From Chitinophaga pinensis (GTDB lineage: Bacteria; Bacteroidota; Bacteroidia; UBA4408), in the NCBI GenBank assembly GCA_945872355.1, contig CAMBZU010000001.1, positions 16,676-80,675 of the forward strand: a stretch of DNA of 64,000 bases. Reading direction: 5' to 3'. Each line of letters begins with the position of its first letter. Within the stretch, counting starts at the first letter, position 1. Below the pieces are notes generated by a model. The model did no database searches and had not been told where the DNA came from. It was given only the letters and a program-made list of their open reading frames with translations. Below, in pieces: positions 1 to 60,067 of this stretch. The position numbers and the translations under genes are program-made.

Positions 1-483
1 ATTAAATTATCAGTTACAATTTTACCTCTGTTTAGTTTAATTTTTTCACGAATGTCATCTGCATCACTTTTTTTTACTCCTTTAAAACTAAATTTAGTCA
101 ATCGGGGGCGCTCTTCAACATTGATACTCAAAAATATTGACTTTCCAGTAACTTTTTCGGCACTAATTGAGATATCGCTGAAAAGATTTAAATCCCAAAG
201 GTTTTTAATTGCTTTGGTAATTGATTCACCAGGCACAAATATTTTATCACCAACAGTTAATCCACTTGAAAGAATGATAACGTTTTTATCTAAGTAATCT
301 GTTCCAAACACAACAATACCGCCTATTTCGTATTCTACTTGCACACTGGTATTTAATTCAATCTCCTGCTGGCCAAGTACCTTTTCTTGCGCAAAAACAC
401 TGTTGAGTTTTAAAGTTAGCAGTATTAAAATAGCTAAAAGTTTGGTGTTGAAACCTGTATTTTTTATGAATGCCATATTTGAT

Positions 484-1227
484 TTAAGAAATAAGCTGTT
501 CGCTGGTTTTTCCAAATCTGCGTTCGCGCGTTTGGTAATCCACAATAGCTTCGAAAAAAGCCGTCCTATCGAAGTCGGGCCAAAGGGTTTCTGTAAAATA
601 TAATTCTGCATATGCAATTTGCCATAGCAGGAAATTACTTATGCGGTGCTCACCACTGGTTCTGATTAATAATTCAGGATGCGGTATTTCCTTTGTTGTA
701 AGATGTTGTTCTATAGTAAGGTCATTTATTTGGTCGGTAGTTAAATTCCCATCCTTTACTTCTTGAGCTATGTTTTTAACAGCCTCAACAATTTCCCATT
801 TTGAACTGTAACTTAAAGCTAAAACGAGCGTTAATCCTGAATTTTGAGCAGTTTCAGCCATTGCTTCTTGCAGCTGCTCATAACATTTTCCTGGGAGTGA
901 TTTTAAATTGCCAATAGCAAGTAATCTTACATTGTTTTTATTTAAGGTTGGAGTTTCGGCCAATATGGTATGAACCAATAATTCCATTAAAGCATCAACT
1001 TCTTCTTTTGGTCTTGACCAATTTTCGGTACTAAATGCATATAAAGTTAAAAATTTAATACCAAGTTCGGCTGCCGCTTCGGTGCAATCTCTTACACTTT
1101 TTACGCCATGTTGATGTCCAAACATTCGGTGTTCGCCTTTGTTTTTAGCCCAACGCCCATTGCCATCCATAATAATGGCAACATGCTTTGGCAATTTAGC
1201 CAAGTCAATACGTTTATCTTCAATCAT
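484..1227 (-). CDS. uppS: Isoprenyl transferase (undecaprenyl-diphosphate synthase)
   Basis: N-terminal IIMDGNGRWA motif and RTSGEHRISNFLLWQ motif typical of cis-prenyltransferases; 247 aa. Confidence 0.9.
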   Translation of the reverse strand: MIEDKRIDLAKLPKHVAIIMDGNGRWAKNKGEHRMFGHQHGVKSVRDCTEAAAELGIKFLTLYAFSTENWSRPKEEVDALMELLVHTILAETPTLNKNNVRLLAIGNLKSLPGKCYEQLQEAMAETAQNSGLTLVLALSYSSKWEIVEAVKNIAQEVKDGNLTTDQINDLTIEQHLTTKEIPHPELLIRTSGEHRISNFLLWQIAYAELYFTETLWPDFDRTAFFEAIVDYQTRERRFGKTSEQLIS

Positions 1228-1486
1228 GTTGCAAATGTAATTTATTCATTTTTAAATGAAAGCACTTAATTAATTTTAACGCAAATGAGCAAATTTTATT
1301 AAGAAATGCCGCAAGAAATTGAAAATTGCCCTAAATAATTAAATATTAAAGCACTTTATTTTCAAAATTACCTGTATGTGCTCATGAAAAATGAAAAACG
1401 TGATCGGTTAATTATACAAATCGAATCTATTTTGACATTTCGTGCTAAGCTTGCTAATTTTTCAATTAAATAGCCACTTCTATTGA

Positions 1487-4045
1487 TTATTCCTTAATGA
1501 AATTTGCATGGTATTGTTTGTTACCATTATAAACTTTAAGTCTATAAACCCCTCTGCTTAAACCTGAAACATTTAATTGCTGTGTGTTTGATGTCTTCAT
1601 TACGAGTTGGCCAATTGAATTGTAAATTTCTATTTCGTTTTTTTGATTGGTCGAAAAATTTGAAAAATTCAATTCATTGATTGCAGGATTTGGAAATACA
1701 TGAACGATACAATTATTAACCAATGATATATTATTAGTAAGCACTTGAGTAATTTCAATTGTGTGGTTGCCATTTGGCAGAGTTAATGAAGTTTGCAAAA
1801 TGCCATTAAGGTCTGTGTTTATTGTTGCTATTGTTATGCCATCTACTTTTACAAAATAAGCACCTGTTGTTAAATCTGCAGCAAAAATATTGATTGCTCT
1901 ACCGCCATTGATTTGATTAAAAACATGATAAACTATACCAGTGTCACCATTCGCTGAAAAATAAAACAAAGTATCATTCCAATCGGCACCAACAGAAGTA
2001 TTGTTGCTTAGAGCAATTCCCCCAGCAACCGCAAAATTGCTGTTTTCACCAACGTTTATGGTGTGTAAATAAACTACCGAGTCTGTATGTATTGTAGGTC
2101 TTATTTCAATCCTCCAACTGCCTGGTGTATAAGCATTAGTATCTGGTGTTACTAAAGGAGGATAATTTACGCCATCTACCCAATATTCATAACCAGCTCC
2201 GCCAATTAGTGTGGTATTTGTGGCGCTGGGCAAAAGCGTTCTGATTGAAATATTTCCATTGCCATTTGTTGAAGAACAATCTTTTCCATTGTAAGTTTCA
2301 ATATGCCCTGCAACATTGGAGTTTACAATACTTCCGCTTATTGTTGGTTGATTTGCAAAATGTGCAATCCATTTGATGTCTCTTTGATTGGCAGTACTAT
2401 TTTTTAGGTGCACATGGTCTAGTACAATTACTTTATTTGGATTGAGATATAATAATCTTCTCCTAAAAAAGTCTAATTTGGCAGTATCGTATGATAATTG
2501 TGCATCTGAAATATGGTAAGAATAATTATTTCCAGTAGCGTATTTAATCCAATTCCCTCTCTGATTTTGAGGCAGAAAAATTTGATTGTAATTTTGCAAA
2601 GCATTAGATTCTATTTGACCTCCATCGTTTGATGCAGCATTTCCAAAGCAGTTGTATACATCGGTTGAATCATATACGCAAATAGTGTTATGTGCAATGG
2701 ATCTTTGGTAATAATTATTGTAATGTGAGCCGCCATAAGTATCATAGTAGCCTGCATCAATAAGTAATGGCTTGTTTTTAAATATTGTAAATGAATTATT
2801 GTCTCTATGTTCATGCGCAGCTCTTTTGCTTGGCGAATTAAAAAAGGTAACCATAGTGCTATTGCTATTCCAAGAAGAACGACTTACCGCCAATCCAACC
2901 TTATCTGACCACCAATTTAAAGGATTAAATGGCTGAGTAACTGTTGGCATCGTAAAATCCTTGTACAACAGTTTTGTGAATTTATCCATTGTATTTGGCG
3001 TAAATGCTGACTGCGAATAATATTGAGCCATCCATAAACTGCGCGGGTCGTTAAAAATTCGAGCATGTAAATACATTACTCTATCTGGAATAATTCTTGT
3101 TTCTCCATCACCAAGGTGTATGCTTTTTTCATTAGGTTGAATAAAATAGATGTATTGATTTATACTGTTTTGCACCCATGGTAAATCGGTATAAAAGTTT
3201 TTATCGGTGCCCACGCGCATGTTTTCAAACAATTGAAACTGATCGGTGAGTGACCACATGGAATAGGCTGCTCCCCAATTCCAACCCCCATCATCATCTC
3301 TATAATGTGTCCAACAAGGAATAAATCCGTTGATGTGTTTATCGTAAACATATTGATACCATTGCGTCACAGTATCTTGCTGCGATAAAGTTAAACCAGC
3401 TGACTGATGTAAAACCAATGCGTTTTGATTGCAATAAATATTATTCCAAGTATTATGACTTGAAACATAGCTCGTTCCTGCACTGGAATAGATATAAGTA
3501 TTCATAAATTCTCTATTCATGATATACAAGGATTGAGCTAATGAATCTCTTAGTGAAATTGGGAAGTCATTATAGCACCAATCAAGAAACAGATCGCCAC
3601 AGTTGCTCATTTTTCGCAATAGGTCTTCTTTTGGGAACCAAGCCATAGTGCTAAAATCGCTAGTGTTGATGGTATTTATTACCTGCCGCGCGATGAACCT
3701 ACAACGTTTTAACTCAAGTGTATCGTGGCTGAGTTTAAAAATAAGCAGCGACAATTGTGCTTGGTCATCGGCCCATTGTGAGTTCCAATTCCAAGTCCAT
3801 AATAAAGAGTCATTGCCAACTAAATACAATTGCGGATCATTGATCCACCAGCCATTGTAGGCAGTTACAATATTATTAAAAGTGGTTTGGCAATCGCCCG
3901 GAATAAGAATATTGTTTTGCAGCCAAGCAATTCTGTTAGCGTCGGAATAGATGCGCGGTCTGTTATTATTTATTATAGGATACTGCGCAGTTGCAAATTG
4001 CAAAGTCAACAAAAATAGAAGACTTAGTATTGTTTTTTTGCTCAT
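1487..4045 (-). CDS. Secreted heparinase II/III-like protein with T9SS C-terminal sorting domain
   Basis: 852 aa. N-terminal signal peptide (MSKKTILSLLFLLTLQFATAQ). Central region resembles alginate-lyase/heparinase II/III folds. C-terminal ~80 aa (YRLKVYNGNKQYHANFIKE) looks like a Por/T9SS CTD. Confidence 0.6.
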   Translation of the reverse strand: MSKKTILSLLFLLTLQFATAQYPIINNNRPRIYSDANRIAWLQNNILIPGDCQTTFNNIVTAYNGWWINDPQLYLVGNDSLLWTWNWNSQWADDQAQLSLLIFKLSHDTLELKRCRFIARQVINTINTSDFSTMAWFPKEDLLRKMSNCGDLFLDWCYNDFPISLRDSLAQSLYIMNREFMNTYIYSSAGTSYVSSHNTWNNIYCNQNALVLHQSAGLTLSQQDTVTQWYQYVYDKHINGFIPCWTHYRDDDGGWNWGAAYSMWSLTDQFQLFENMRVGTDKNFYTDLPWVQNSINQYIYFIQPNEKSIHLGDGETRIIPDRVMYLHARIFNDPRSLWMAQYYSQSAFTPNTMDKFTKLLYKDFTMPTVTQPFNPLNWWSDKVGLAVSRSSWNSNSTMVTFFNSPSKRAAHEHRDNNSFTIFKNKPLLIDAGYYDTYGGSHYNNYYQRSIAHNTICVYDSTDVYNCFGNAASNDGGQIESNALQNYNQIFLPQNQRGNWIKYATGNNYSYHISDAQLSYDTAKLDFFRRRLLYLNPNKVIVLDHVHLKNSTANQRDIKWIAHFANQPTISGSIVNSNVAGHIETYNGKDCSSTNGNGNISIRTLLPSATNTTLIGGAGYEYWVDGVNYPPLVTPDTNAYTPGSWRIEIRPTIHTDSVVYLHTINVGENSNFAVAGGIALSNNTSVGADWNDTLFYFSANGDTGIVYHVFNQINGGRAINIFAADLTTGAYFVKVDGITIATINTDLNGILQTSLTLPNGNHTIEITQVLTNNISLVNNCIVHVFPNPAINELNFSNFSTNQKNEIEIYNSIGQLVMKTSNTQQLNVSGLSRGVYRLKVYNGNKQYHANFIKE

Positions 4046-4204
4046 TTACCCTGTTTTAATGAGGTGAATATAGTGATTGTACAATTATCTTTTATTTTTT
4101 TATTCGCTTTCTTAATAATTATCAACCATTAAGGTGGTTTGAGTAAACCCTACTTATTTCACATCGGTATAAATTAAGAAAGTTTAAACTAGATAACTTC
4201 AATA

Positions 4205-4243
4205 AAAAAAAGCCCCAACAAATAAATGCTGAGGCTTTTTAAA
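4205..4243 (-). terminator. Probable rho-independent terminator downstream of atpC
   Basis: GC stem (agcctcagc...ggggct, allowing G-U) followed by a T-run on the minus strand. Confidence 0.5.
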
Positions 4244-4259
4244 TTTTAATATTTAACTT

Positions 4260-4493
4260 TTACTCAGCCAATACAATAACTTTATTTTTTAAAACTTCAA
4301 CCACACCACCTTTAATGGTAAAAGATTGTGTGCCAGCATTATCAGTTACCTTAACTTTACCTGCTTTTAAAGCACTAATCATTGGAGCATGGTTATTTAA
4401 AATACCTAATGAACCATCGCTACCTGGTAATGAAACTGACTTTATTTCGCCTTCAAACAACTTTTTATCAGGACTTATTATTTCTAAAAACAT
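4260..4493 (-). CDS. atpC: F0F1 ATP synthase epsilon subunit
   Basis: 77 aa beta-sandwich epsilon N-domain (LPGSDGSLGILNNHAPMISALKAGKVKV), immediately downstream of atpD. Confidence 0.85.
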   Translation of the reverse strand: MFLEIISPDKKLFEGEIKSVSLPGSDGSLGILNNHAPMISALKAGKVKVTDNAGTQSFTIKGGVVEVLKNKVIVLAE

Positions 4494-4520
4494 GCTTTCT
4501 AGTTTAGTGAATTAAGCTAA

Positions 4521-6029
<1,509 letters not shown>

Positions 6030-8958: not shown

Positions 8959-9288
8959 ATGGAAGAGGCAAAAGCAAGATACGAAAAGCACCTATTTATT
9001 TGCACAAACCAAAGAGCCGAAGGGCAGAGAATTTGTTGTGGCGAAGCACATGGAATGGCATTAACCGCTGCATTTAAAGAAGCCATTAAAGAGAAAAAAT
9101 TACAAGTTAAAATGCGTGCTCAAAAGGCTGGATGTTTTGATATATGTGAATTTGGACCCAATGTTATTGTTTATCCAGAGGGCGTGTATTATGGTAAAGT
9201 TACGCTTGAAGATGTGAATGAAATTGTTGAAGAACACCTTGTAAACAATAGACCAGTAGCACGTTTACGACTTAATTTTGCAAGATAG
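8959..9288 (+). CDS. Thioredoxin-like [2Fe-2S] ferredoxin
   Basis: LFICTNQR...CCGEAHG...GCFDICEFGPNVIVYPEGVYYG pattern of 2Fe-2S thioredoxin-like ferredoxins. Its last 35 nt are repeated at 11675-11709, so the present stop arises inside the repeat. Confidence 0.8.
   Translation: MEEAKARYEKHLFICTNQRAEGQRICCGEAHGMALTAAFKEAIKEKKLQVKMRAQKAGCFDICEFGPNVIVYPEGVYYGKVTLEDVNEIVEEHLVNNRPVARLRLNFAR
9249..9283. repeat. Left copy of the 35-bp perfect direct repeat (tagaccagtagcacgtttacgacttaattttgcaa)
   Basis: Identical to 11675-11709; overlaps the ferredoxin 3' end. Confidence 0.9.
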
Positions 9289-9354
9289 CAAAACTATTAT
9301 GCTAAGCCCTTTTTAGTGGTTTTTAATGAATCAATTACTTAAGGAGAATTATAG

Positions 9355-10065
9355 TTACAATTTAATCGATAAAGCGCAATTAATGTTGTAGGACATAGAA
9401 TTGTTTATTACATAGTAACCTTTCATCGAGGTTAATTTCAGATTGTAAAAATTAAGGAAATGATAATCACTCCTTGCTATCAGGAAAATTCCTACTTTCT
9501 TTGTAATTAAATAACCCATTCCTAAAGACGTTGAAACAAAAATACTATTATTTGATACATCTGCTAAAGAAGTTCCAATAGCAATTCTATTATCTGATAT
9601 GTCTGCTTTTCTTTCTGAATTTAATCCACCAATACCTAACCCTATGGTTGGCTGAAGCTTTGTTTTCAGTATTTCCGCGAAATTATACTTAAATTGAATA
9701 TTCAAAGGGATATATCTTCTATTGGATTGTTGGTAGATTCTCTTTCGATTGCTGATAATACCAGTAGATATCAAAGTAGTATCAAAGTAAGCGCCAGTGC
9801 ACATTGAGATACTTGTTTTTTTATTAATCATGTAGTCAAATTCCAAATACAAACCCTTTGCTATTTTTTCATCAAATGGAATAGAAGTCATTTTATTGGA
9901 TAATTCGAAATTTGGGTTAAAGATGCCAAGACCAACTAAAACATTTGCTTTGGATGAATTTACATCTTTGCCTTTATCTTCAGTGATTTTCTCTGTGTTA
10001 ATATTCTGACTAAAGAGTATGATAGGATAGAATAATATTAAATTGATAATGTTAAACTTTTTCAT
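9355..10065 (-). CDS. Outer-membrane beta-barrel (porin-family) protein, hypothetical
   Basis: Signal peptide; alternating amphipathic beta strands; C-terminal ...LSIKL. Confidence 0.5.
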   Translation of the reverse strand: MKKFNIINLILFYPIILFSQNINTEKITEDKGKDVNSSKANVLVGLGIFNPNFELSNKMTSIPFDEKIAKGLYLEFDYMINKKTSISMCTGAYFDTTLISTGIISNRKRIYQQSNRRYIPLNIQFKYNFAEILKTKLQPTIGLGIGGLNSERKADISDNRIAIGTSLADVSNNSIFVSTSLGMGYLITKKVGIFLIARSDYHFLNFYNLKLTSMKGYYVINNSMSYNINCALSIKL

Positions 10066-10067
10066 AA

Positions 10068-10553
10068 TTATTTAATTTTAACTTTAGCTCCGTATCCAGC
10101 AACTGTTGCGGTTACCTTCTTAACAAATAAACTTTTTTGCACCTCAATAATGTACTTAGGGTTAACTAAAATATCATACGGGGTTCCCTTAAGTGCTTTG
10201 TAAGTAGCGGCCTTTTTTTCTAGCTCACCAATTCCACTATTGGAAGTTAAGGCATCACTGAAAAAATTGTCTTGTGACTTAAAAACTCCGAAATACACAC
10301 TTGTTGTCGAAGTTGCCTGAAGTGTCTTACTTTTATCAATCTCTACATCAATATCTATATTGTAATTCATAGTAATGGTTGGCTGAACAGATTGTCCGCT
10401 ATAGTTTGTCGTTTTACATGAAACAAGTGATGTTATAAGCAACAATAACAGTAGTAAGTTTTTTAAATAGTAATTTTTCAATGCGTTATCTCTGAACAAG
10501 ATTCTGATTTTATAAAAAGTGCAATAAACCAGATTGATTAGATTTTTTTTCAT
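10068..10553 (-). CDS. Hypothetical lipoprotein
   Basis: Leu-rich signal with lipobox (LVSC); C-terminal region resembles the lipoprotein at 11792-12259 (YDILVNPKYIIEV vs YDVVFYPTYEIKV). Confidence 0.5.
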   Translation of the reverse strand: MKKNLINLVYCTFYKIRILFRDNALKNYYLKNLLLLLLLITSLVSCKTTNYSGQSVQPTITMNYNIDIDVEIDKSKTLQATSTTSVYFGVFKSQDNFFSDALTSNSGIGELEKKAATYKALKGTPYDILVNPKYIIEVQKSLFVKKVTATVAGYGAKVKIK

Positions 10554-10622
10554 GTTTTTTGTTTTTGAATTGTAGTTGAATAAAGTTTCGATTATTTCTC
10601 GTTTGAATAATTTTTACAATTA

Positions 10623-11096
10623 CTATTTGCTAGAATTGTTATTTTTGCAAATAGATGATAGCTTTTTGCTCAAGGTCAAACCCATACGAGAAGTATTACT
10701 TGCATCCTCCAAAAATGAATTGATATCGATTGTTGACGTTTTTGGATAAGACTTACAAATTTGATGAATTGCAATACATCTCTTTTCCCAAAACTTTACA
10801 ATCTCAGATTTGGTTGGGTTAGGGATTAACTCTTCCAAATCTTTGAAACGAACAAAGTCCCCAACTGTAATTTTTGAAATGTCTTTTTTTGGCATTTTAC
10901 CTTTCATTACATAAATACTATAGAGTCTATCACATATTATTGATTCTTCAATTGCAATAGCCTCAAAGTAAAAGCCCTCTTTGATTGACTCTTTTATTCT
11001 ATTAAAAGCTTCAGAATAGGAATTGTGTTTCTCAATATTTCCTTTTTTTGCAAGCCCAATTTTTTTAGATGTGGTAAGATTTATTATTTCTGACAT
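10623..11096 (-). CDS. Hypothetical cytoplasmic protein (157 aa)
   Basis: ORF only; no recognisable motifs; divergent from the XRE regulator. Confidence 0.4.
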   Translation of the reverse strand: MSEIINLTTSKKIGLAKKGNIEKHNSYSEAFNRIKESIKEGFYFEAIAIEESIICDRLYSIYVMKGKMPKKDISKITVGDFVRFKDLEELIPNPTKSEIVKFWEKRCIAIHQICKSYPKTSTIDINSFLEDASNTSRMGLTLSKKLSSICKNNNSSK

Positions 11097-11279
11097 AAAT
11101 TAACTTGCTAAACAATTTTCAATAATTTATCCGTATCCAGAAAGAAGTATTCATGCAAGATTTTTTGCATAAATACAATTCGCAAAATATTTTTTACAAA
11201 TCTATACTATTAACAAAGTATTTTGTTGCACATGTGTTCTAAATTAGTACCTTTGAAATTGTATCATAGAACCTTAATA

Positions 11280-11672
11280 ATGGAAAAAAATTTTAAATCG
11301 GTCGCAGATCGCGTTAAAGAAATGAGGCTAAAAAAAAATTACTCGCAAGATTATATTGCAAAAAAATTAGGTATCAGCCAAAAGGCATACTCAAAAATTG
11401 AAAACAACGAAACGCGACTTAATGTTGAAGCATTACTTTCTATTTCTGAGATATTAGAAATACCAGTTAATAATTTTTTTGGCGATTCTAAAGCGCCAAT
11501 GCTTAACGACTTTAGTTCTGGCAGAGACGGTGATAATGTAATTTATAAGACGATAAATGACAATGCAAAAGAGGATTTATATCAGCAACTACTCAAAGCG
11601 AAAGAAGAAATTATACAATCAAAAAATACTGAAATTGAAACTTTAAAAAAGCAAATCGAAAAAGTAGTATAA
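11280..11672 (+). CDS. XRE-family HTH transcriptional regulator with C-terminal coiled coil
   Basis: YSQDYIAKKLGISQKAYSKIENNE is a classic Cro/C1-type HTH. Probable start at the internal Met (MEKNFKS); ORF track start 11223. Confidence 0.75.
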   Translation: MEKNFKSVADRVKEMRLKKNYSQDYIAKKLGISQKAYSKIENNETRLNVEALLSISEILEIPVNNFFGDSKAPMLNDFSSGRDGDNVIYKTINDNAKEDLYQQLLKAKEEIIQSKNTEIETLKKQIEKVV

Positions 11673-11674
11673 TT

Positions 11675-11709
11675 TAGACCAGTAGCACGTTTACGACTTA
11701 ATTTTGCAA
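11675..11709. repeat. Right copy of the 35-bp perfect direct repeat
   Basis: Identical to 9249-9283; in frame it would encode ferredoxin ...RLRLNFAKPV*. Confidence 0.9.
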
Positions 11710-11724
11710 AGCCTGTTTAAAAAT

Positions 11725-11760
11725 AAAACCGCCAAAACAATTTTTGCTTTGCGGTTTTAT
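11725..11760. terminator. Probable bidirectional rho-independent terminator
   Basis: aaaaccgc ... gcggtttt stem followed by tttat; sits between convergent genes. Confidence 0.5.
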
Positions 11761-11791
11761 TTACATTCATTGCAGCTAAAACTGCCAATTA

Positions 11792-12259
11792 CTATTTATT
11801 CAATTTTCCTAAGCGTGCTGTAGATTTTACGTGTGTTGTTTTAAGTATAAAACCAATACCTATAATTGGTTTCACAACTTTAATTTCATAAGTAGGATAA
11901 AAAACTACATCATAACCCGGGTTAGCATTCATCATTTCATATAATGAATAGTTTACTGTTTTATCCCCACTTACAAAACCTCCAACTACAGGTAAGCTAG
12001 CTAAATTGATTAAGCTAGAAAAGCTTCCTCCCGCTTCAATGTTTCCAGTTTTTTTGGTAAATATCCTGGCAAAGTCAATCCCAAAAACTCTTGTTGTATT
12101 TGCTTCAGCCGTCAACTGATCTGATAAAGTAAAATCACTTTTAGAAAATTGAACGCGATTGTTAGGCTCACGCATTGATTTGTTAATTGTTGTACAACTG
12201 CTAATTAATGTAGCCAATAATGCTACAAATGCCAATGCCTTAAAGTTCATTTTTTTCAT
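11792..12259 (-). CDS. Hypothetical lipoprotein (paralog-like of 10068-10553)
   Basis: Signal peptide with lipobox (LISSC); C-terminal similarity to the cassette lipoprotein. Confidence 0.5.
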   Translation of the reverse strand: MKKMNFKALAFVALLATLISSCTTINKSMREPNNRVQFSKSDFTLSDQLTAEANTTRVFGIDFARIFTKKTGNIEAGGSFSSLINLASLPVVGGFVSGDKTVNYSLYEMMNANPGYDVVFYPTYEIKVVKPIIGIGFILKTTHVKSTARLGKLNK

Positions 12260-12429
12260 TTTTTTAAATTATTTAATTACCCCTACTCTTATGGATTTTC
12301 GGTTACTCCTATTATCCCAAAAATATATTTGTAGCCAATAATTTTAGACGCTATAACTTAGAACTTATCCTTAATGAGGTGTTAATAATACCTTAAAGTG
12401 CCTTTTTATAGCGCATTGCAGCGTAAAAA

Positions 12430-12912
12430 TTATTTTAAAACGTAACGAAGTGTTAAAGCCCCATCAAACCAAAACTTAGTGTCTGCAGTGAAATTCAATT
12501 CAGGTTTAATATTAATACCTATATTAATAGGGCTTTCTTTAAAGGTATATTCCAAGCCCAAAATGCCATCAATACCTAAATTTATATGCCTTGAAAGGTC
12601 TTCATAAAATACGTTAGCTCTGCGTCCGTTTACAAGCTTAGCATGTGCTCCAAATCCGTAGTACCAATCAAATTTATCAATATCAAACGGATGCCTATGA
12701 TTGAATTCATAGAGTAGCGTAATGCCTGGGCCATAATTAAAGTTTGCAATGCCTTCAATCATATTTTTGGTGTTCAAATAATGTTTAAGTGTAATGCCAT
12801 AATTGTAGCCAGCATTAACACCAATAGCTGTATAGTAAAGTTGCGGTTGTGCTTTTGATGTATTTGCCGCAGCAATTAACAGCAACAAACAAATTGTAAT
12901 TTTCTTTATCAT
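12430..12912 (-). CDS. Small outer-membrane beta-barrel protein
   Basis: Signal peptide (AANTSKAQ), 160 aa, alternating beta-strand pattern, C-terminal aromatic (RYVLK). Confidence 0.55.
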   Translation of the reverse strand: MIKKITICLLLLIAAANTSKAQPQLYYTAIGVNAGYNYGITLKHYLNTKNMIEGIANFNYGPGITLLYEFNHRHPFDIDKFDWYYGFGAHAKLVNGRRANVFYEDLSRHINLGIDGILGLEYTFKESPINIGINIKPELNFTADTKFWFDGALTLRYVLK

Positions 12913-12915
12913 AAT

Positions 12916-14574
12916 TTAAATTGTATAATTTGCAACAATTGGCATTCTTCTACCCATGCCAAAAGCCTTAGGTGATATCCTAATTACAGGCGCAGCCTGC
13001 TTGCGTTTATATTCATTTTTGTTGACCATATTTAAAACTCTTTTTACCAATTTTTCATCATAGCCAAGCTCGCAAATTTCTTCTGCCGACATTTTATTTT
13101 CAATGTATTGAAACAAAATAGCATCTAACATATCGTATTCGGGCAATGAGTCTGAATCTTTTTGATTTGGCCTGAGTTCAGCAGATGGAGGCTTAGTAAG
13201 GGTGTTTATTGGGATAATTTCTTTTTCTTTATTGATATATTCACAAAGCGCATACACTTCTGTTTTATATACATCTCCAATAACAGCAAGGCCACCGCAC
13301 ATATCACCATAAAGAGTACCGTAGCCAACAGCCATTTCGCTTTTATTGCTTGTATTAAGTAAAATATAACCAAATTTATTGCTCAATCCCATTAATATTA
13401 CTCCTCTTAATCTAGCTTGAATGTTTTCTTCTGCTACACTAAATGCGGTGTCAGCAAAGCTTGGTGCTAATGTTTTTAATACCGATTGAAAACTATCTTC
13501 TATTGGAACTACTTGATGTTTGCATGCTAAGTTGTTTACTAAGGCTAAGGCATCATCAATACTATGTGCACTGCTAAAGGCTGATGGCAGCAAAACAGCC
13601 ATTACATTTTCTTTGCCCAGCGCAGCAACAGCAAGTACAAGTGTTAGCGCTGAATCAATACCACCGCTTAAACCTAAAATTGCTTGTTTAAAGTTTTGTT
13701 TGCTAAAATAGTCGCTGATGCCACAAATTAAGGCTTTATAAATTAATTCATTTTTAGATGGAAAAGCGTACTCAACTATGAGTTTTTCATCGCTTTGAAA
13801 AAGATTGAAGTGCTGATAATTCTCTTTAAAAAAAGGGGCAGTGGCAATAAGTTTTCCCTCTTTATTAAATGCACATGAACCGCCATCAAAAACTAATTCT
13901 GTTTGAGCGCCACAATGATTTACATAAATTAAAGGCAGTTGATATTTAATGGCATTTCTTTGAAGTACCTTTAGTCTAGTTTTATGTTGCACATAACTAA
14001 AGGGCGAGGCCGCAATATTAATGATGCAGTCGGGGTTTAATTTCATTAGCTCTTGCATAGGGCTAATGGTATACATTTTAGCATGATTTAATGGGGTAAA
14101 TGTTTCATCTTGTTGGTCCCATAAATCTTCACATATGGTAAGTGCAATTTTATGGTTATTAAATGCTATTATTTCAAAGTTGATATTTGGCTCAAAATAC
14201 CTGTACTCGTCAAATACATCATAATTTGGGAGCAATGTTTTTTTAATTATTTTTTCAATGCATTTATTGTTTAAAAAATAGGCGGCATTAAAAAGTCTTT
14301 TTCCGGTTTCATTATTATTTATGGCTGGTGCTCCAATAATTGCTGCTATTCCATCGCAATGCATGGCTATAAGTGCAATTGTTTTTGAACATTCTTCAAT
14401 AAAATGATTGGATTCTAAAAAATCTAGGGGAGGATAACCACAGAGCGATAATTCTGGAAAAACGATTAAATCAACCGAATCAACTTTAGCGATGTTGATT
14501 TGTTCAATTATTTTAGCGGCATTCGCATTAAAATTACCAATATGAAAGTTAAGTTGTGCCCAGGCAATTTTCAT
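12916..14574 (-). CDS. nadE: Glutamine-dependent NAD+ synthetase
   Basis: 552 aa; N-terminal CN-hydrolase domain plus C-terminal PP-loop SGGIDS. Confidence 0.9.
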   Translation of the reverse strand: MKIAWAQLNFHIGNFNANAAKIIEQINIAKVDSVDLIVFPELSLCGYPPLDFLESNHFIEECSKTIALIAMHCDGIAAIIGAPAINNNETGKRLFNAAYFLNNKCIEKIIKKTLLPNYDVFDEYRYFEPNINFEIIAFNNHKIALTICEDLWDQQDETFTPLNHAKMYTISPMQELMKLNPDCIINIAASPFSYVQHKTRLKVLQRNAIKYQLPLIYVNHCGAQTELVFDGGSCAFNKEGKLIATAPFFKENYQHFNLFQSDEKLIVEYAFPSKNELIYKALICGISDYFSKQNFKQAILGLSGGIDSALTLVLAVAALGKENVMAVLLPSAFSSAHSIDDALALVNNLACKHQVVPIEDSFQSVLKTLAPSFADTAFSVAEENIQARLRGVILMGLSNKFGYILLNTSNKSEMAVGYGTLYGDMCGGLAVIGDVYKTEVYALCEYINKEKEIIPINTLTKPPSAELRPNQKDSDSLPEYDMLDAILFQYIENKMSAEEICELGYDEKLVKRVLNMVNKNEYKRKQAAPVIRISPKAFGMGRRMPIVANYTI

Positions 14575-14636: not shown

Positions 14637-15428
14637 CTAAAATAAAATTCCTATGTTTAATTGGAAGAAATTAGATTTAGCATTTTGCTGTAGGGCCTGA
14701 CCTTTTTTGGCAAGAGATTTAATTGTTTCTGATTCTTTCTTTAAAACATTTGTAAAGCCGTTTTGAAAATTCAAACTTGCAAAAAGAGCTGTTGTTCCTG
14801 CTATTCTATATTCAGCGCCAGCGCCAACATTTAAACCTGCTCTAAAAAAACTCATATCTTTGGTTACAATTAAATCTGGAATTTCATAATCGTTCACCAC
14901 AGTAATTATAGTGTCTTTATAGTTTACTAGTGTGCCAATATCATTGGCTTTTACTTTTCCTCTAATAGAAAGGTTTAATCCAAACATCCCAAAATAGGTA
15001 AAAGCGCCAACTTCTGGAGTTCTCATTTTTAGCAGAAGCGGAATATCAACGTAAGTAATTTTATAACTTCTTTGAGCAATAAGATATCTATCAAAGCTAC
15101 CTGTAACAGGCAATGTATATTCCGAAGGATCATAAAAAGCTGAATCGGCTGCATTGGCAAAATTTAGTCTTCCTCCAGTATAGTTAACTTCTAAACCGGT
15201 AGAAAAACTTGCAACTGAGGTTAATCTAAACTCAGCAACTAAGCCATATGCAAATTTTAGCAAGCTGCCATCGCTTAATAATTTTTTCTTATCATCTGGT
15301 TTCATCCAAGCAATAGATGGTGCCATTTTTAGCCCAAATCTAAATTTTTGCGCTTCAGCTTTGTCCTGCGCAATTAGTTTTCCAAAAATCATTGAAAAAC
15401 ATATAGTAAATAAGAAAAGCTTTTTCAT
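14637..15428 (-). CDS. Outer-membrane beta-barrel (porin-family) protein
   Basis: Signal peptide (MKKLFLFTICFSMIFGKLIAQ, probable start at the internal Met); beta-strand periodicity; C-terminal ...NIGILF. Confidence 0.55.
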   Translation of the reverse strand: MKKLFLFTICFSMIFGKLIAQDKAEAQKFRFGLKMAPSIAWMKPDDKKKLLSDGSLLKFAYGLVAEFRLTSVASFSTGLEVNYTGGRLNFANAADSAFYDPSEYTLPVTGSFDRYLIAQRSYKITYVDIPLLLKMRTPEVGAFTYFGMFGLNLSIRGKVKANDIGTLVNYKDTIITVVNDYEIPDLIVTKDMSFFRAGLNVGAGAEYRIAGTTALFASLNFQNGFTNVLKKESETIKSLAKKGQALQQNAKSNFFQLNIGILF

Positions 15429-34600: not shown

Positions 34601-35527
34601 CTAATAAAAAGTAAAATTGAAGTTGAAAATTTCAATAAGACTGTCGTTGTTTGATTTACTTAAGATACTCTCTAAAATCATGTTTTCTTTGTTGTAAAAA
34701 TAAAAACGGTGGTTTTTTAATGATGTATTTCTAAAATATTTTTCTTCAGTTAAATTGTCAGCCTCATAGCTAAATTTTGTATTTTCTTTTAAATCACCTG
34801 CCGCATTGCTTGAATAAAAAGATTCTAGCGTACGGCCCTTATCATCAAAATTAGTATTGTAATTTACGCGCACACCCGTGGTTGTAAACGTGTAATCTTG
34901 TGCTTTCAATAATTTATTTTTTCCTTCAAAGTATAAGATGCCTTCTTTGTAAATCAAGTTATTATCGTTGAGGAACTTCTTACGTGTTTGATTTTCATTG
35001 ATAATTTCATAACTATAACTTTCACTTTGCATTAATGTTTGTTGACCTAATTTAAAAAACCTAAAGTCGTCGCTCAAATTGGTTTCGTTACAAACAATAT
35101 GCTTGGTTACTTGATTGTACTCATTTGATGTTTCATAAATAGCAGTATAACGTCCTTTATTGAAAGTTCTGGCAATGTGTGTTCTTGTTTCTTTGTTATA
35201 GTAATGAAATGTAAAAATACTATCATAGTTATATTCTTGCCTTGTTACTTCAACAAATGATGCTAAATCACCTTGCAGATTGTAGGTAAAAATATATTTT
35301 TTACCTGTTTTTTCAATCCGCGCATTTTCACGTTTAATACCAACTTCAACTTCTATGGTTTGTATTTTTTTATCGACATGTATTTTGCTTGGATAAAGGC
35401 GCTCGATGGAGTTGTTTATCCATTCTTGCTGTTGGTTAATTTGTGCGTTTGTATTTAATGCTATAAAGCACATCAATATCACCAATCTAAGCATAATATA
35501 ATGGATGGATCTAATTTTAAGAATCAC
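34601..35527 (-). CDS. Hypothetical secreted protein (308 aa)
   Basis: Signal peptide (MLRLVILMCFIALNTNAQ); Tyr/Asn-rich; no known motifs. Confidence 0.4.
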   Translation of the reverse strand: MILKIRSIHYIMLRLVILMCFIALNTNAQINQQQEWINNSIERLYPSKIHVDKKIQTIEVEVGIKRENARIEKTGKKYIFTYNLQGDLASFVEVTRQEYNYDSIFTFHYYNKETRTHIARTFNKGRYTAIYETSNEYNQVTKHIVCNETNLSDDFRFFKLGQQTLMQSESYSYEIINENQTRKKFLNDNNLIYKEGILYFEGKNKLLKAQDYTFTTTGVRVNYNTNFDDKGRTLESFYSSNAAGDLKENTKFSYEADNLTEEKYFRNTSLKNHRFYFYNKENMILESILSKSNNDSLIEIFNFNFTFY

Positions 35528-58966: not shown

Positions 58967-60067
58967 GTGCCCAAACCTAAATACATATTATCGCCGTACT
59001 TAAAACAAGGCTTGTTTTGGAAAGTAATTGAAACCATTGCATTTCCTATTTACACAAAGGCTGATTGCCGGAAGGTGTGTGAACTTTTTGAGCTAAAAGG
59101 ATTGCCTGTGATATCAGAAAGTACATTGTACCGACTTTTTTTATTGGAGGGAAGTGATAACATTCCCTATTTGCAAACATTAGATATTTTAGCTAAATTT
59201 TGTAATTACAAAGATTGGTACAGTTTAGAAAAACATTTAAACGAACTATCAACATTTGAATTGTCCTTTGGAAAAGTACATGTCAAAAATAGGAGTACAT
59301 TAAGTTTACTAACCTCTTGCATACATCATAACGAATTGAAATCAGTTTATGATTTTTCAGAACAATTTGATGGAAGCCTTGAATTACAAAAAAAAGGAGC
59401 GCTCGGCGAAGAATTTTATAAAGCACTAAAAACAAATCCAAACAAAAACGACTTATTCTTTAAAAATTTTTCCAAATTACCAATAGTTAGAGAAGCATTT
59501 TTTGAATATATGGCTGATCCAACTTTTATAATACCTAGTTACGAAATTGGCTTGAAATATTATCTACTTGGAATAAAACCAGAACAGTCATCAAAATCAT
59601 TACAAGACTTTGTTTTTGGAAATTGTCTATTGTTTAGGTATTATTTTTTAGATAACGATAAATCAGAGTCAAAGAAATTAGGCATAAAATTATATGAAAC
59701 GTATAATTTTTCGTCTAAGGATTTAGCGTCAATACATATCTTTCCAAAAATTCGTTTTTTGGCTTATAAAATATTTTATTTAAATATAAATGGCACAATA
59801 CAAGAAATACAAAAATATGAAATTTGGTTATTAAATTATGTTTCAAAAATTACACAAAAACTTACTTTAGAAGAAAAAAGAATTGTGCTCTTTACAATAG
59901 CAGATGTGTTTGTAAATAATACGAGCACTAAAGTTGATATGCATAATCAATTAAAGCTAATTTTTGGCGACGTATTAAATACATTGCCATCCTTTGTAAG
60001 TGCAACCTCACTGAAGGATGCGCTGCCTTACTTGAACAGAAATGCCGCTAAAATCTGGAAAATATAG
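58967..60067 (+). CDS. Hypothetical protein with N-terminal HTH-like segment (366 aa)
   Basis: LKGLPVISESTLYRLF resembles an HTH recognition helix; the remaining about 300 aa have no recognised motif. Confidence 0.4.
   Translation: MPKPKYILSPYLKQGLFWKVIETIAFPIYTKADCRKVCELFELKGLPVISESTLYRLFLLEGSDNIPYLQTLDILAKFCNYKDWYSLEKHLNELSTFELSFGKVHVKNRSTLSLLTSCIHHNELKSVYDFSEQFDGSLELQKKGALGEEFYKALKTNPNKNDLFFKNFSKLPIVREAFFEYMADPTFIIPSYEIGLKYYLLGIKPEQSSKSLQDFVFGNCLLFRYYFLDNDKSESKKLGIKLYETYNFSSKDLASIHIFPKIRFLAYKIFYLNINGTIQEIQKYEIWLLNYVSKITQKLTLEEKRIVLFTIADVFVNNTSTKVDMHNQLKLIFGDVLNTLPSFVSATSLKDALPYLNRNAAKIWKI

Follow-up and report, generated by a model that had tools for sequence, protein, structure and literature searches.

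The 64,000-nucleotide stretch analyzed here (the window) comes from contig CAMBZU010000001.1 of the Chitinophaga pinensis assembly GCA_945872355.1 (positions 16,676 to 80,675 of the forward strand), and carries a 2.4-kb block of four genes that is a real insertion into the last codons of a 2Fe-2S ferredoxin gene (fdx). The block, or cassette, consists of three cargo genes (c1, c2, and c3) and a gene for an XRE-family regulator, and is bounded by two copies of a 35-bp direct repeat. The features of the locus, with the evidence for each given in parentheses, are the following.

8959 to 9288, plus strand: 2Fe-2S ferredoxin gene fdx, 109 amino acids (aa), the target gene (open reading frame [ORF], Pfam, conserved synteny)
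9249 to 9283, plus strand: left copy of the 35-bp repeat, attL-like, coding for (N)RPVARLRLNFA (maps on the single copy in the empty site of locus L078, 7292 to 7327)
9284 to 9354, no strand: left end of the insert, GA-TAG (R-stop) plus 64 nt of noncoding DNA (junction alignment)
9355 to 10065, minus strand: cargo gene c1, 236 aa (ORF; weak DUF2715 match)
10068 to 10553, minus strand: cargo gene c2, 161 aa, predicted lipoprotein (LVSC lipobox by eye)
10623 to 11096, minus strand: cargo gene c3, 157 aa, HEPN-like predicted ribonuclease of a rare orphan family, divergent from the XRE gene (fold plus motif)
11097 to 11234, no strand: cassette-specific intergenic region, presumed cargo promoter (DNA shared with L001 and L054 begins only at about 11226 to 11235)
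11235 to 11279, plus strand: constant XRE promoter/operator region (left limit of the DNA common with L001 and L054)
11280 to 11672, plus strand: XRE-family helix-turn-helix regulator, 130 aa, constant anchor at the right end (HTH_3, E = 2e-14)
11675 to 11709, plus strand: right copy of the 35-bp repeat, attR-like (begins 2 nt past the XRE stop codon)
11710 to 11763, plus strand: native fdx tail AG CCT GTT TAA and terminator hairpin (right copy read in the fdx frame)
11792 to 12259, minus strand: flanking lipoprotein, 155 aa, outside the cassette (weak DUF6567 match, E = 0.0012)

The initial annotation had described perfect 35-bp direct repeats at these positions and had placed the original 3' end of fdx, with its terminator, at the right copy, and both statements hold. 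An exact search of the window located two copies of TAGACCAGTAGCACGTTTACGACTTAATTTTGCAA, at 9249 to 9283 and 11675 to 11709, and no further copy with up to 3 mismatches, which does not support membership in a dispersed repeat family, while none of 100 shuffled controls gave even two matches. The match between the copies breaks off sharply at either end of the 35 nt, and an extension of the repeat to 52 nt adds only 9 matches in 17 positions, the chance level in AT-rich DNA. Read in the fdx frame, the right copy runs on as AAG CCT GTT TAA (KPV-stop, with the stop codon at 11718 to 11720) and is followed by a hairpin at 11725 to 11758 (AAAACCGC...GCGGTTTT) and then by ATTT (T-run). Thus, the AKPV-stop reading and its hairpin agree with the sequence and with RNAfold, which gave −20 kcal/mol for 11701 to 11775; a simple terminator scan with a loop limit of 3 to 8 nt missed this hairpin, probably because its loop is longer. 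For its part, the live fdx frame closes with AGA TAG (R-stop), its last two codons being partly derived from the insert. The proposal that the insertion reconstitutes the ORF therefore stands insofar as the frame stays closed, but what it amounts to is the swapping of KPV-stop for R-stop. The 64-nt noncoding left end showed no homologue in any other locus fetched. The ferredoxin itself matched Suc_Fer-like in Pfam (E = 1.3e-8) and the 2Fe-2S ferredoxin models of NCBIfam (E = 2.7e-23; 82.5 bits, under the model's cut-off of 150 bits).

A ferredoxin query, restricted to one genome per species, retrieved the same neighborhood (tatC, a CMD-family gene, fdx, then omp160, which encodes a 160-aa outer membrane protein [OMP], and nadE) from several uncultured Bacteroidia, many of them from lakes; the loci fetched are designated by L numbers. 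The order tatC-CMD-fdx was kept in L001 to L006 and L078 to L084. Empty sites, which the initial annotation had proposed to look for, were found in L002, L006, and L078 to L082, and its counter-scenario, in which all relatives carry the four genes and no empty site exists, is not what these loci display. In L002, fdx runs directly into the OMP gene. L006 has no cassette, and there fdx is followed by its terminator, a homologue of the 155-aa flanking lipoprotein, omp160, and nadE. In the five contigs L078 to L082, fdx ends in NFARP-stop, 147 bp from omp160. L001 and L084 are occupied, and both of their flanks are 98.1 to 99.2% identical to those of the empty L078; therefore, presence and absence of a cassette segregate within one population. 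The host lineage of this site comprises uncultured Bacteroidia, mostly from lake water.

An unoccupied allele appears to exist for the window strain as well. The ferredoxin predicted for its unoccupied site (window residues 1 to 107 plus KPV) had an exact public match, P0172 (107/107 identical, on a 22-kb contig), whereas neither of two control ferredoxin variants was on record in the same exact-sequence look-up. This protein suggests an empty site in this exact strain, whose junction is predicted to read fdx, one 35-mer, then AGCCTGTTTAA and the hairpin.

The four genes of the window do not behave as one fixed unit. The XRE protein is always found at the right edge, with 97.7 to 98.5% aa identity to that of the window in L001, L037, and L073 and 86% in L051 to L056. 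The cargo of L001 consists of genes of 412, 216, 86, 410, and 181 aa, including fragments resembling GldM and GldN; L084 carries a shorter form of this set, and L051 to L056 carry genes of 126, 157, 276, 56, and 105 aa. Nucleotide homology of the window to L001 and L054 ends right after the fdx stop and restarts about 45 to 55 bp upstream of the XRE ATG, and at every occupied fdx site the cargo lies on the strand opposite to XRE. Given that unrelated cargo stands behind the same XRE gene, of the four-gene insertion first proposed the insertion is retained and the single unit is not: XRE, its promoter, and the repeat are constant, the three minus-strand genes are exchangeable, and at least three cargo sets occur at the fdx site. 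A similar exchange was seen at another chromosomal site, where L057 and L058 share an identical XRE protein, a 98% identical right flank, and a 94.5% identical left flank but carry wholly different cargo. At other XRE-anchored sites, the cargo includes many lipoproteins, substrates of the type IX secretion system (T9SS), and proteins without known function.

All four window genes were nevertheless found together, at the same site, in another host lineage (L073 to L077 and L037). The L073 cassette is flanked by a 77-bp direct repeat of 91% identity that spans the last 42 nt of fdx and the terminator, and each of its copies aligns with the same 76 bp of the empty L078. The 35-nt segment is 35/35 identical between the two copies in the window, versus about 83% in L073, and the perfect match points to a recent event or to gene conversion in the window strain. 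Divergence between the window and L073 was measured as third-codon-position identity per gene. The cassette genes c1, c3, and XRE showed 89%, 90%, and 86%, respectively, and c2 showed 73%, whereas the core genes tatC, CMD, fdx, omp160, and nadE showed 75%, 64%, 71%, 50%, and 61%, respectively. The 86 to 90% of c1, c3, and XRE against the 50 to 75% of the core thus places their common ancestor later than that of the host genomes, and points to horizontal transfer of the cassette between lineages.

Two simple accounts of such a block, transposition with a very long target-site duplication and a faulty assembly of metagenomic reads, are effectively refuted. The ends of the insert are indeed sharp, with duplicated host sequence directly flanking them, and the window does seem to derive from a metagenome assembly, given that its ferredoxin is recorded from a 137-kb contig and that the relatives nearest to it are metagenome-assembled genomes. 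However, no transposase was found in the cassette and no terminal inverted repeats were seen at its ends, and we know of no transposase family whose duplications would vary from 35 to 170 bp. As for an artefact, assemblies of at least five separate samples (L073 to L077) yielded this architecture independently, as did further samples for the other cargo sets; moreover, a 35-bp repeat is shorter than typical assembly k-mers. A transposon of the DDE or insertion sequence (IS) type was rejected on the same grounds, namely, the lack of a transposase and of terminal inverted repeats and a duplication of at least 35 bp that is variable.

The junctions were then compared across loci. The left boundary of the repeat and the junction on the XRE side are constant in five loci, whereas the left junction and the length of the repeat vary. 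On the right, the XRE stop codon is followed, after 2 to 3 nt, by (T/A)AGA... in L073, L037, L001, L084, and the window. On the left, an AG(A/G)-TAG junction also occurs in L001, L084, L054, and L004. The repeat measures 35 bp in the window, 77 bp in L073, and about 110 to 170 bp in L054. Insertion at the 3' end of fdx, as in the att-site logic invoked in the initial annotation, is upheld, and the repeat does not have the one length that a simple att core would lead one to expect. Since the length of the repeat is not fixed, homology-dependent recombination is at least as likely as an integrase for present-day movement.

A second target gene was recognized in L063, a 326-kb metagenome contig. 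There, a distant XRE gene, whose product combines HTH_3 with a C-terminal helix, stands 26 nt ahead of a 37-bp copy (92% identity) of the 3' end of ogt (DNA_binding_1), whose live copy lies upstream of the cargo of that XRE gene. The remnant continues as ELKVD-stop plus a hairpin (by eye), which is the original tail, and the live ogt ends in ELAI-stop, with a new two-codon tail and a different hairpin. By its sequence, this layout follows the same logic as the fdx site. The contig holds two XRE-anchored cassettes in tandem, separated by a duplication of 1586 bp (2647 to 4232 and 10925 to 12510; 99.6% identity) that takes in ogt completely, trmB for the most part, and, from the cargo gene that follows, the C-terminal end with its Por_Secre_tail. 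After the second XRE gene, at 15052 to 15097, comes an ogt remnant of 37 to 46 bp that is older. The array looks like accretion, or possibly an assembly join.

Taken together, these data make the window block a strain-variable insertion into a housekeeping gene, one allele of a hypervariable cassette site, and we consider it probable that the site was founded by an att-type event and has since been subject to passive gain, loss, and swapping of cargo. A circular element bearing the fdx 3' end beside its XRE gene would have integrated by att-type recombination, in one or few founding events, duplicating the gene end, with the right copy keeping the native tail and terminator. Later gain from related strains would proceed through recombination in flanking or duplicated homology, loss through recombination between the direct repeats, and replacement of cargo between two anchors, which are the XRE promoter and the end of fdx. 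A recombinase acting in trans might also take part. An att-type event is in agreement with the targeting of 3' ends at two genes, the constant right junction, and the hybrid-looking L073 copies around AATTTTGC. Homology-driven exchange is in agreement with the variable repeat length, the cargo breakpoints at conserved anchors, and the patchwork left ends. The data directly show the insertion, its presence or absence within populations, the younger ancestry of the cassette relative to its flanks, the exchange of cargo, and the lack of a recombinase; what we infer from the anatomy is how the site was founded, by which enzyme, and whether the window strain has undergone gain or loss.

It is also possible, although somewhat unlikely in our view, that the cassette is still an active nonautonomous element, with the repeats serving as functional attL and attR sites for a tyrosine or large serine recombinase that is encoded elsewhere or by a co-resident element and acts in trans. 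Two unrelated genes, fdx and ogt, are both hit at the 3' end, with the repeat starting in the last 40 to 50 nt or so of the ORF, and at both the element supplies a short new tail while the native tail and hairpin stand at the right copy. The constant XRE-stop/repeat junction of the window, L073, L037, L001, and L084, the resemblance of the L073 copies to B-O-P'/P-O-B' hybrids, and the accretion-like tandem array of L063 would fit such an enzyme, as would a recent and precise integration or excision, given the 35/35 identity and the presence in the population of the exact unoccupied-type ferredoxin. The circle junction would then be predicted to read XRE stop, 35-mer, GATAGCAAAAC... On the other hand, repeat length differs by locus (35, 77, or 110 to 170 bp), different target genes would require different trans-acting specificities, and no recombinase was found beside the fdx-site cassettes, in their 7- to 10-kb flanks, or in the 64-kb window.

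This lack of a recombinase anywhere near the cassettes would be expected if a circle carrying an fdx 3' fragment had entered by a single homologous crossover, as in Campbell-type insertion-duplication, with the repeat being simply the homology carried and no dedicated recombinase ever involved. The variable extent of the duplication (35 bp; 77 bp including the terminator; about 110 to 170 bp including intergenic DNA; 1586 bp at 99.6% in L063) and the patchwork left ends, such as the 130-bp, 92% intergenic copy in L001 and L084, could be accounted for in the same way. We nonetheless regard this route as quite improbable: 35 bp is near the lower limit for RecA-dependent recombination, the model does not explain how a circle acquired the 3' ends of two target genes, each adjoining an XRE gene, and a right junction that stays the same in diverged cassettes speaks for a single founding event and not for repeated integrations. 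The intergenic copy just mentioned is the first 130 bp of the L001/L084 cassette (10333 to 10461), right after the fdx stop, and is a copy of the alaS-atpC intergenic region, which lies 7 kb upstream in the same genome (L084, 2973 to 3102; L078, 1 to 102) and is not in the window.

The search for a recombinase covered several levels. No integrase, transposase, or relaxase was found in the four cassette ORFs with Pfam, PADLOC, NCBIfam, or PHROGs, in accordance with the initial annotation. No recombinase domain appeared in the Pfam tables of the occupied loci, in any variant cassette or in the flanks of 7 to 10 kb, and no integrase or conjugation gene was present at the fdx-site loci L001 to L006, L037, L051 to L056, and L073 to L087. 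In the window, Pfam detected no recombinase among 20 mid-sized ORFs (housekeeping genes and two ORFs with no match), and a six-frame motif scan for tyrosine- and serine-recombinase signatures, a weak test, gave no match. Two window ORFs, at 34601 to 35527 (minus strand; 308 aa) and 58967 to 60067 (plus strand; 366 aa), had no Pfam match at E ≤ 1e-4.

Recombinases near a member of the XRE family were seen only in L039. There, 5 kb away from that gene and across the cargo from it, lie an IS30-like transposase gene and the part of a large serine recombinase gene that encodes the C-terminal half, the remainder being cut off by the contig end. This partial enzyme would favor a recombinase acting in trans, but its truncation and its place beside an IS30 transposase weigh on the other side, and we treat it as no more than a lead. 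The cargo behind the L039 XRE gene (67% identity), at 12 to 4729, encodes an asparagine-synthase-like protein, a weakly matching transglutaminase-like protein, and a glycosyltransferase; these genes may form a cluster of the lasso-peptide type. Scans of IMG/VR with the XRE protein, c3, and the L039 recombinase fragment gave no match, and PHROGs matched generic repressors only, so that nothing indicated a phage origin.

Several observations weigh against founding by an att-type event followed by passive exchange. No enzyme, circular form, or excision junction was seen, so that the mechanism is read from anatomy, and the search for a recombinase in trans covered 64 kb of the window genome. The repeat varies in identity (100% versus about 91%) as well as in length (35, 77, or about 110 to 170 bp), unlike a single att core, and its perfect identity in the window requires a recent event or gene conversion. 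The transfer signal comes from c1, c3, and XRE, c2 (73%) being as diverged as tatC, CMD, and fdx (64 to 75%), and the unoccupied site predicted for the window strain has one protein, P0172, behind it. The XRE protein of the ogt site is only 32 to 35% identical to the other members, which makes "one family" a loose statement, and many members (L057, L059, L066, L068, and L070) sit at chromosomal sites with no detectable repeat. The HEPN assignment of c3, for its part, is made from fold and motif, and no described HEPN family matched the protein at the level of sequence.

The XRE gene was the only one of the four cassette ORFs with a confident family match (PF01381, HTH_3; 53.8 bits versus a cut-off of 23). 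The C-terminal region of its product looks coiled-coil by eye, and weak matches were obtained to the antitoxin or repressor models HipB, RstR, and CapH-like. The exact 130-aa window protein (ATG at 11280) was not found in the public record. The family comprises 119 homologue clusters at identities of at least 38%, nearly all metagenomic; two come from named species, both Bacteroidota. The constant stretch at 11235 to 11279 contains GTTCTAAATTAGTAC-type palindromes beside TACCTTTG, which we take to be the Bacteroidota −7 box (TAnnTTTG). Two copies of GT(A/T)CTA-n3-4-TAGTAC were present directly upstream of the start codon in every family member examined (the window, L001, L037 to L040, L054, L057 to L059, L063, L064, L066, L068, L070, and L073), and this conservation suggests that the XRE protein is an autoregulated repressor acting through these operator-like palindromes. 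Around the homologues of L039, L057 to L059, L064, L066, L068, L070, and L071, no significant repeats were found; hence, not every such XRE gene marks an insertion.

In a third lineage (L040, L041, and L068), the gene for the XRE homologue (56 to 59% identity) and the signal recognition particle (SRP) RNA gene (Rfam RF04183, 68 to 69 bits; L040, 784 to 875; L041, 1664 to 1755; L068, 10380 to 10471) have 3' ends that lie no more than about 10 bp apart. No flanking repeat was found.

A bolder interpretation of the XRE anchor is that Bacteroidota possess an undescribed cassette-capture system, in which XRE-anchored docking modules in fdx and ogt 3' ends would take up cargo operons, and movement would be driven by a recombinase invisible to profiles or by a host factor that the XRE module, with its palindromes, recruits. 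We hold this to be unlikely; if true, it would represent a functional analogue of integrons or of staphylococcal cassette chromosome (SCC) elements with no recognizable integrase.

The c3 protein is modeled as a four-helix up-and-down fold of the HEPN kind, and its R-x4-H motif (R105 and H110) was invariant in seven of seven homologues, down to 35% identity. None of the seven members had a Pfam match, a profile search against PDB sequences gave nothing at an E value below 0.8, and PADLOC, NCBIfam, and PHROGs gave no match for c3. The exact protein occurs on two short extra contigs only. With c3 head-to-head with an XRE repressor, the model suggests a module of the toxin or abortive-infection type, and c3 and XRE probably form a toxin/regulator-type pair that could also stabilize the cassette. 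The HEPN-like fold, the invariant motif, and the small head-to-head XRE neighbor recall HEPN-toxin modules with an adjacent regulator or antitoxin; in those modules, however, the usual partner is an MNT nucleotidyltransferase and not an XRE protein, whereas here the two genes are divergent and not cotranscribed, and the same XRE gene has unrelated partners in other cassettes. A HEPN-like orphan with its regulator would be a candidate for a new toxin or defense module.

Among known systems, the closest analogues of the cassette are ccr-less SCC elements and cis-mobilizable elements (CIMEs), which are outlined in PMC5704250 as att-flanked remnants devoid of integration or transfer genes and derived by decay of integrative and conjugative or integrative mobilizable elements (ICEs or IMEs). 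As with the CIMEs outlined there (e.g., those related to ICESt1 of Streptococcus thermophilus), the window cassette lies between direct repeats that include the 3' end of a target gene, carries no integrase, excisionase, or transfer gene among its four ORFs (in Pfam, PADLOC, NCBIfam, and PHROGs), and occupies a site where elements accumulate or replace each other, with tandem accretion in L063. Both copies of the window repeat map to a single site in the empty L078. The cassette differs in that, in the genomes and contigs examined, the fdx site yielded no related ICE or IME with an integrase, the length of the repeat is not constant between loci, and the gene retained is an XRE regulator abutting attR and not the remains of a recombination module.

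Entry into a conserved housekeeping gene at its 3' end, such that the ORF stays intact, with direct repeats on both sides, is also a trait of SCCmec and of pseudo-SCC elements lacking ccr, as are highly variable cargo and tandem composites; the ccr-less versions have no recombinase of their own and rely on one in trans. The repeats of SCC elements are short (about 15 to 18 bp), and their recombinases are the Ccr large serine recombinases. In the present case, the repeats are longer, no recombinase was identified, the phylum and the target gene are different, and the XRE anchor is not a defining feature of SCC. Replacement-type flexible islands of aquatic bacteria provide a third comparison, by having different gene sets at one locus in close, co-occurring strains, conserved bounding sequences able to act as homology arms (as in L057/L058 and in the window, L001, and L054), and cargo rich in surface and secreted proteins. 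The classical islands, however, are large clusters of glycosylation or O-antigen genes and lack a duplicated target, whereas the fdx site is small (2 to 5 kb), its XRE anchor is itself derived from the insertion, and a duplicated gene end marks the site. Thus, the cassette differs from all three by its XRE anchor and its variable repeat length, and no new principle is involved unless an unrecognized recombination system lies behind it. An integron cassette array, or a cluster of attC sites lacking an integron-integrase (CALIN), was rejected: the gaps between c1 and c2 (2 bp) and between c2 and c3 (69 bp) leave little space for attC, and no recurring inverted repeat was found between the cassette genes.

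The fdx site offers a clean, sequence-resolved case of gene gain and loss in one natural population of uncultured lake bacteria whose flanks are 98 to 99% identical, and its precise boundaries, with cargo varying between strains, are informative on microdiversity. In our assessment, such recombinase-less cassettes are probably overlooked by island finders that depend on integrases. Should the layout prove general, an XRE gene abutting a duplicated gene end would be a simple search key for more cassettes and would mark exchange hotspots of Bacteroidota for genes encoding surface proteins and toxin- or defense-like functions.

Regarding the remaining cargo, the c1 product has by eye a signal-peptide-like N terminus and the look of an outer membrane beta-barrel; its only Pfam match was DUF2715 (E = 0.0024, weak, below the cut-off), and it is 88.7% identical to its orthologue in L073 to L077. 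The c2 lipoprotein had no family match in Pfam, NCBIfam, or PHROGs. A palindrome with a 12-bp stem (GTATTTATGCAA...TTGCATGAATAC) lies on the cargo side of the intergenic region, at 11147 to 11176; it was rejected as an operator, as by eye it is not kept in the orthologous cassette of L037 and L073, and the operator-like motif that is conserved is nearer to the start of XRE. In L001, positions 12687 to 14309 encode a 410-aa lipoprotein that corresponds to domains three and four of GldM, along with an 86-aa fragment that matches the N terminus of GldN; both by sequence appear to be partial paralogues of gliding/T9SS core genes in a mobile cassette.

Other small genes accompany the site. In L003 (10338 to 12432) and L004 (10610 to 11505), the interval from fdx to the OMP gene holds two to four small minus-strand lipoprotein genes and lacks an XRE gene. 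The fdx tail of L004 (NFAR-stop) and about 100 bp beyond it are the sequence that is duplicated in L054, and L004 may be a decayed earlier cassette. The paralogy first proposed between the c2 lipoprotein and the flanking lipoprotein at 11792 to 12259 proved only marginal (23% identity; pairwise E = 0.002). The flanking gene was not present in the closest relatives, L002, L078, L001, and L073, and tblastn matched it in the more distant L006 only; it may have accreted earlier at this site, or it may have been lost repeatedly, and it may itself be an older cassette remnant. In L066, a DUF6567 lipoprotein gene is the divergent partner of an XRE homologue.

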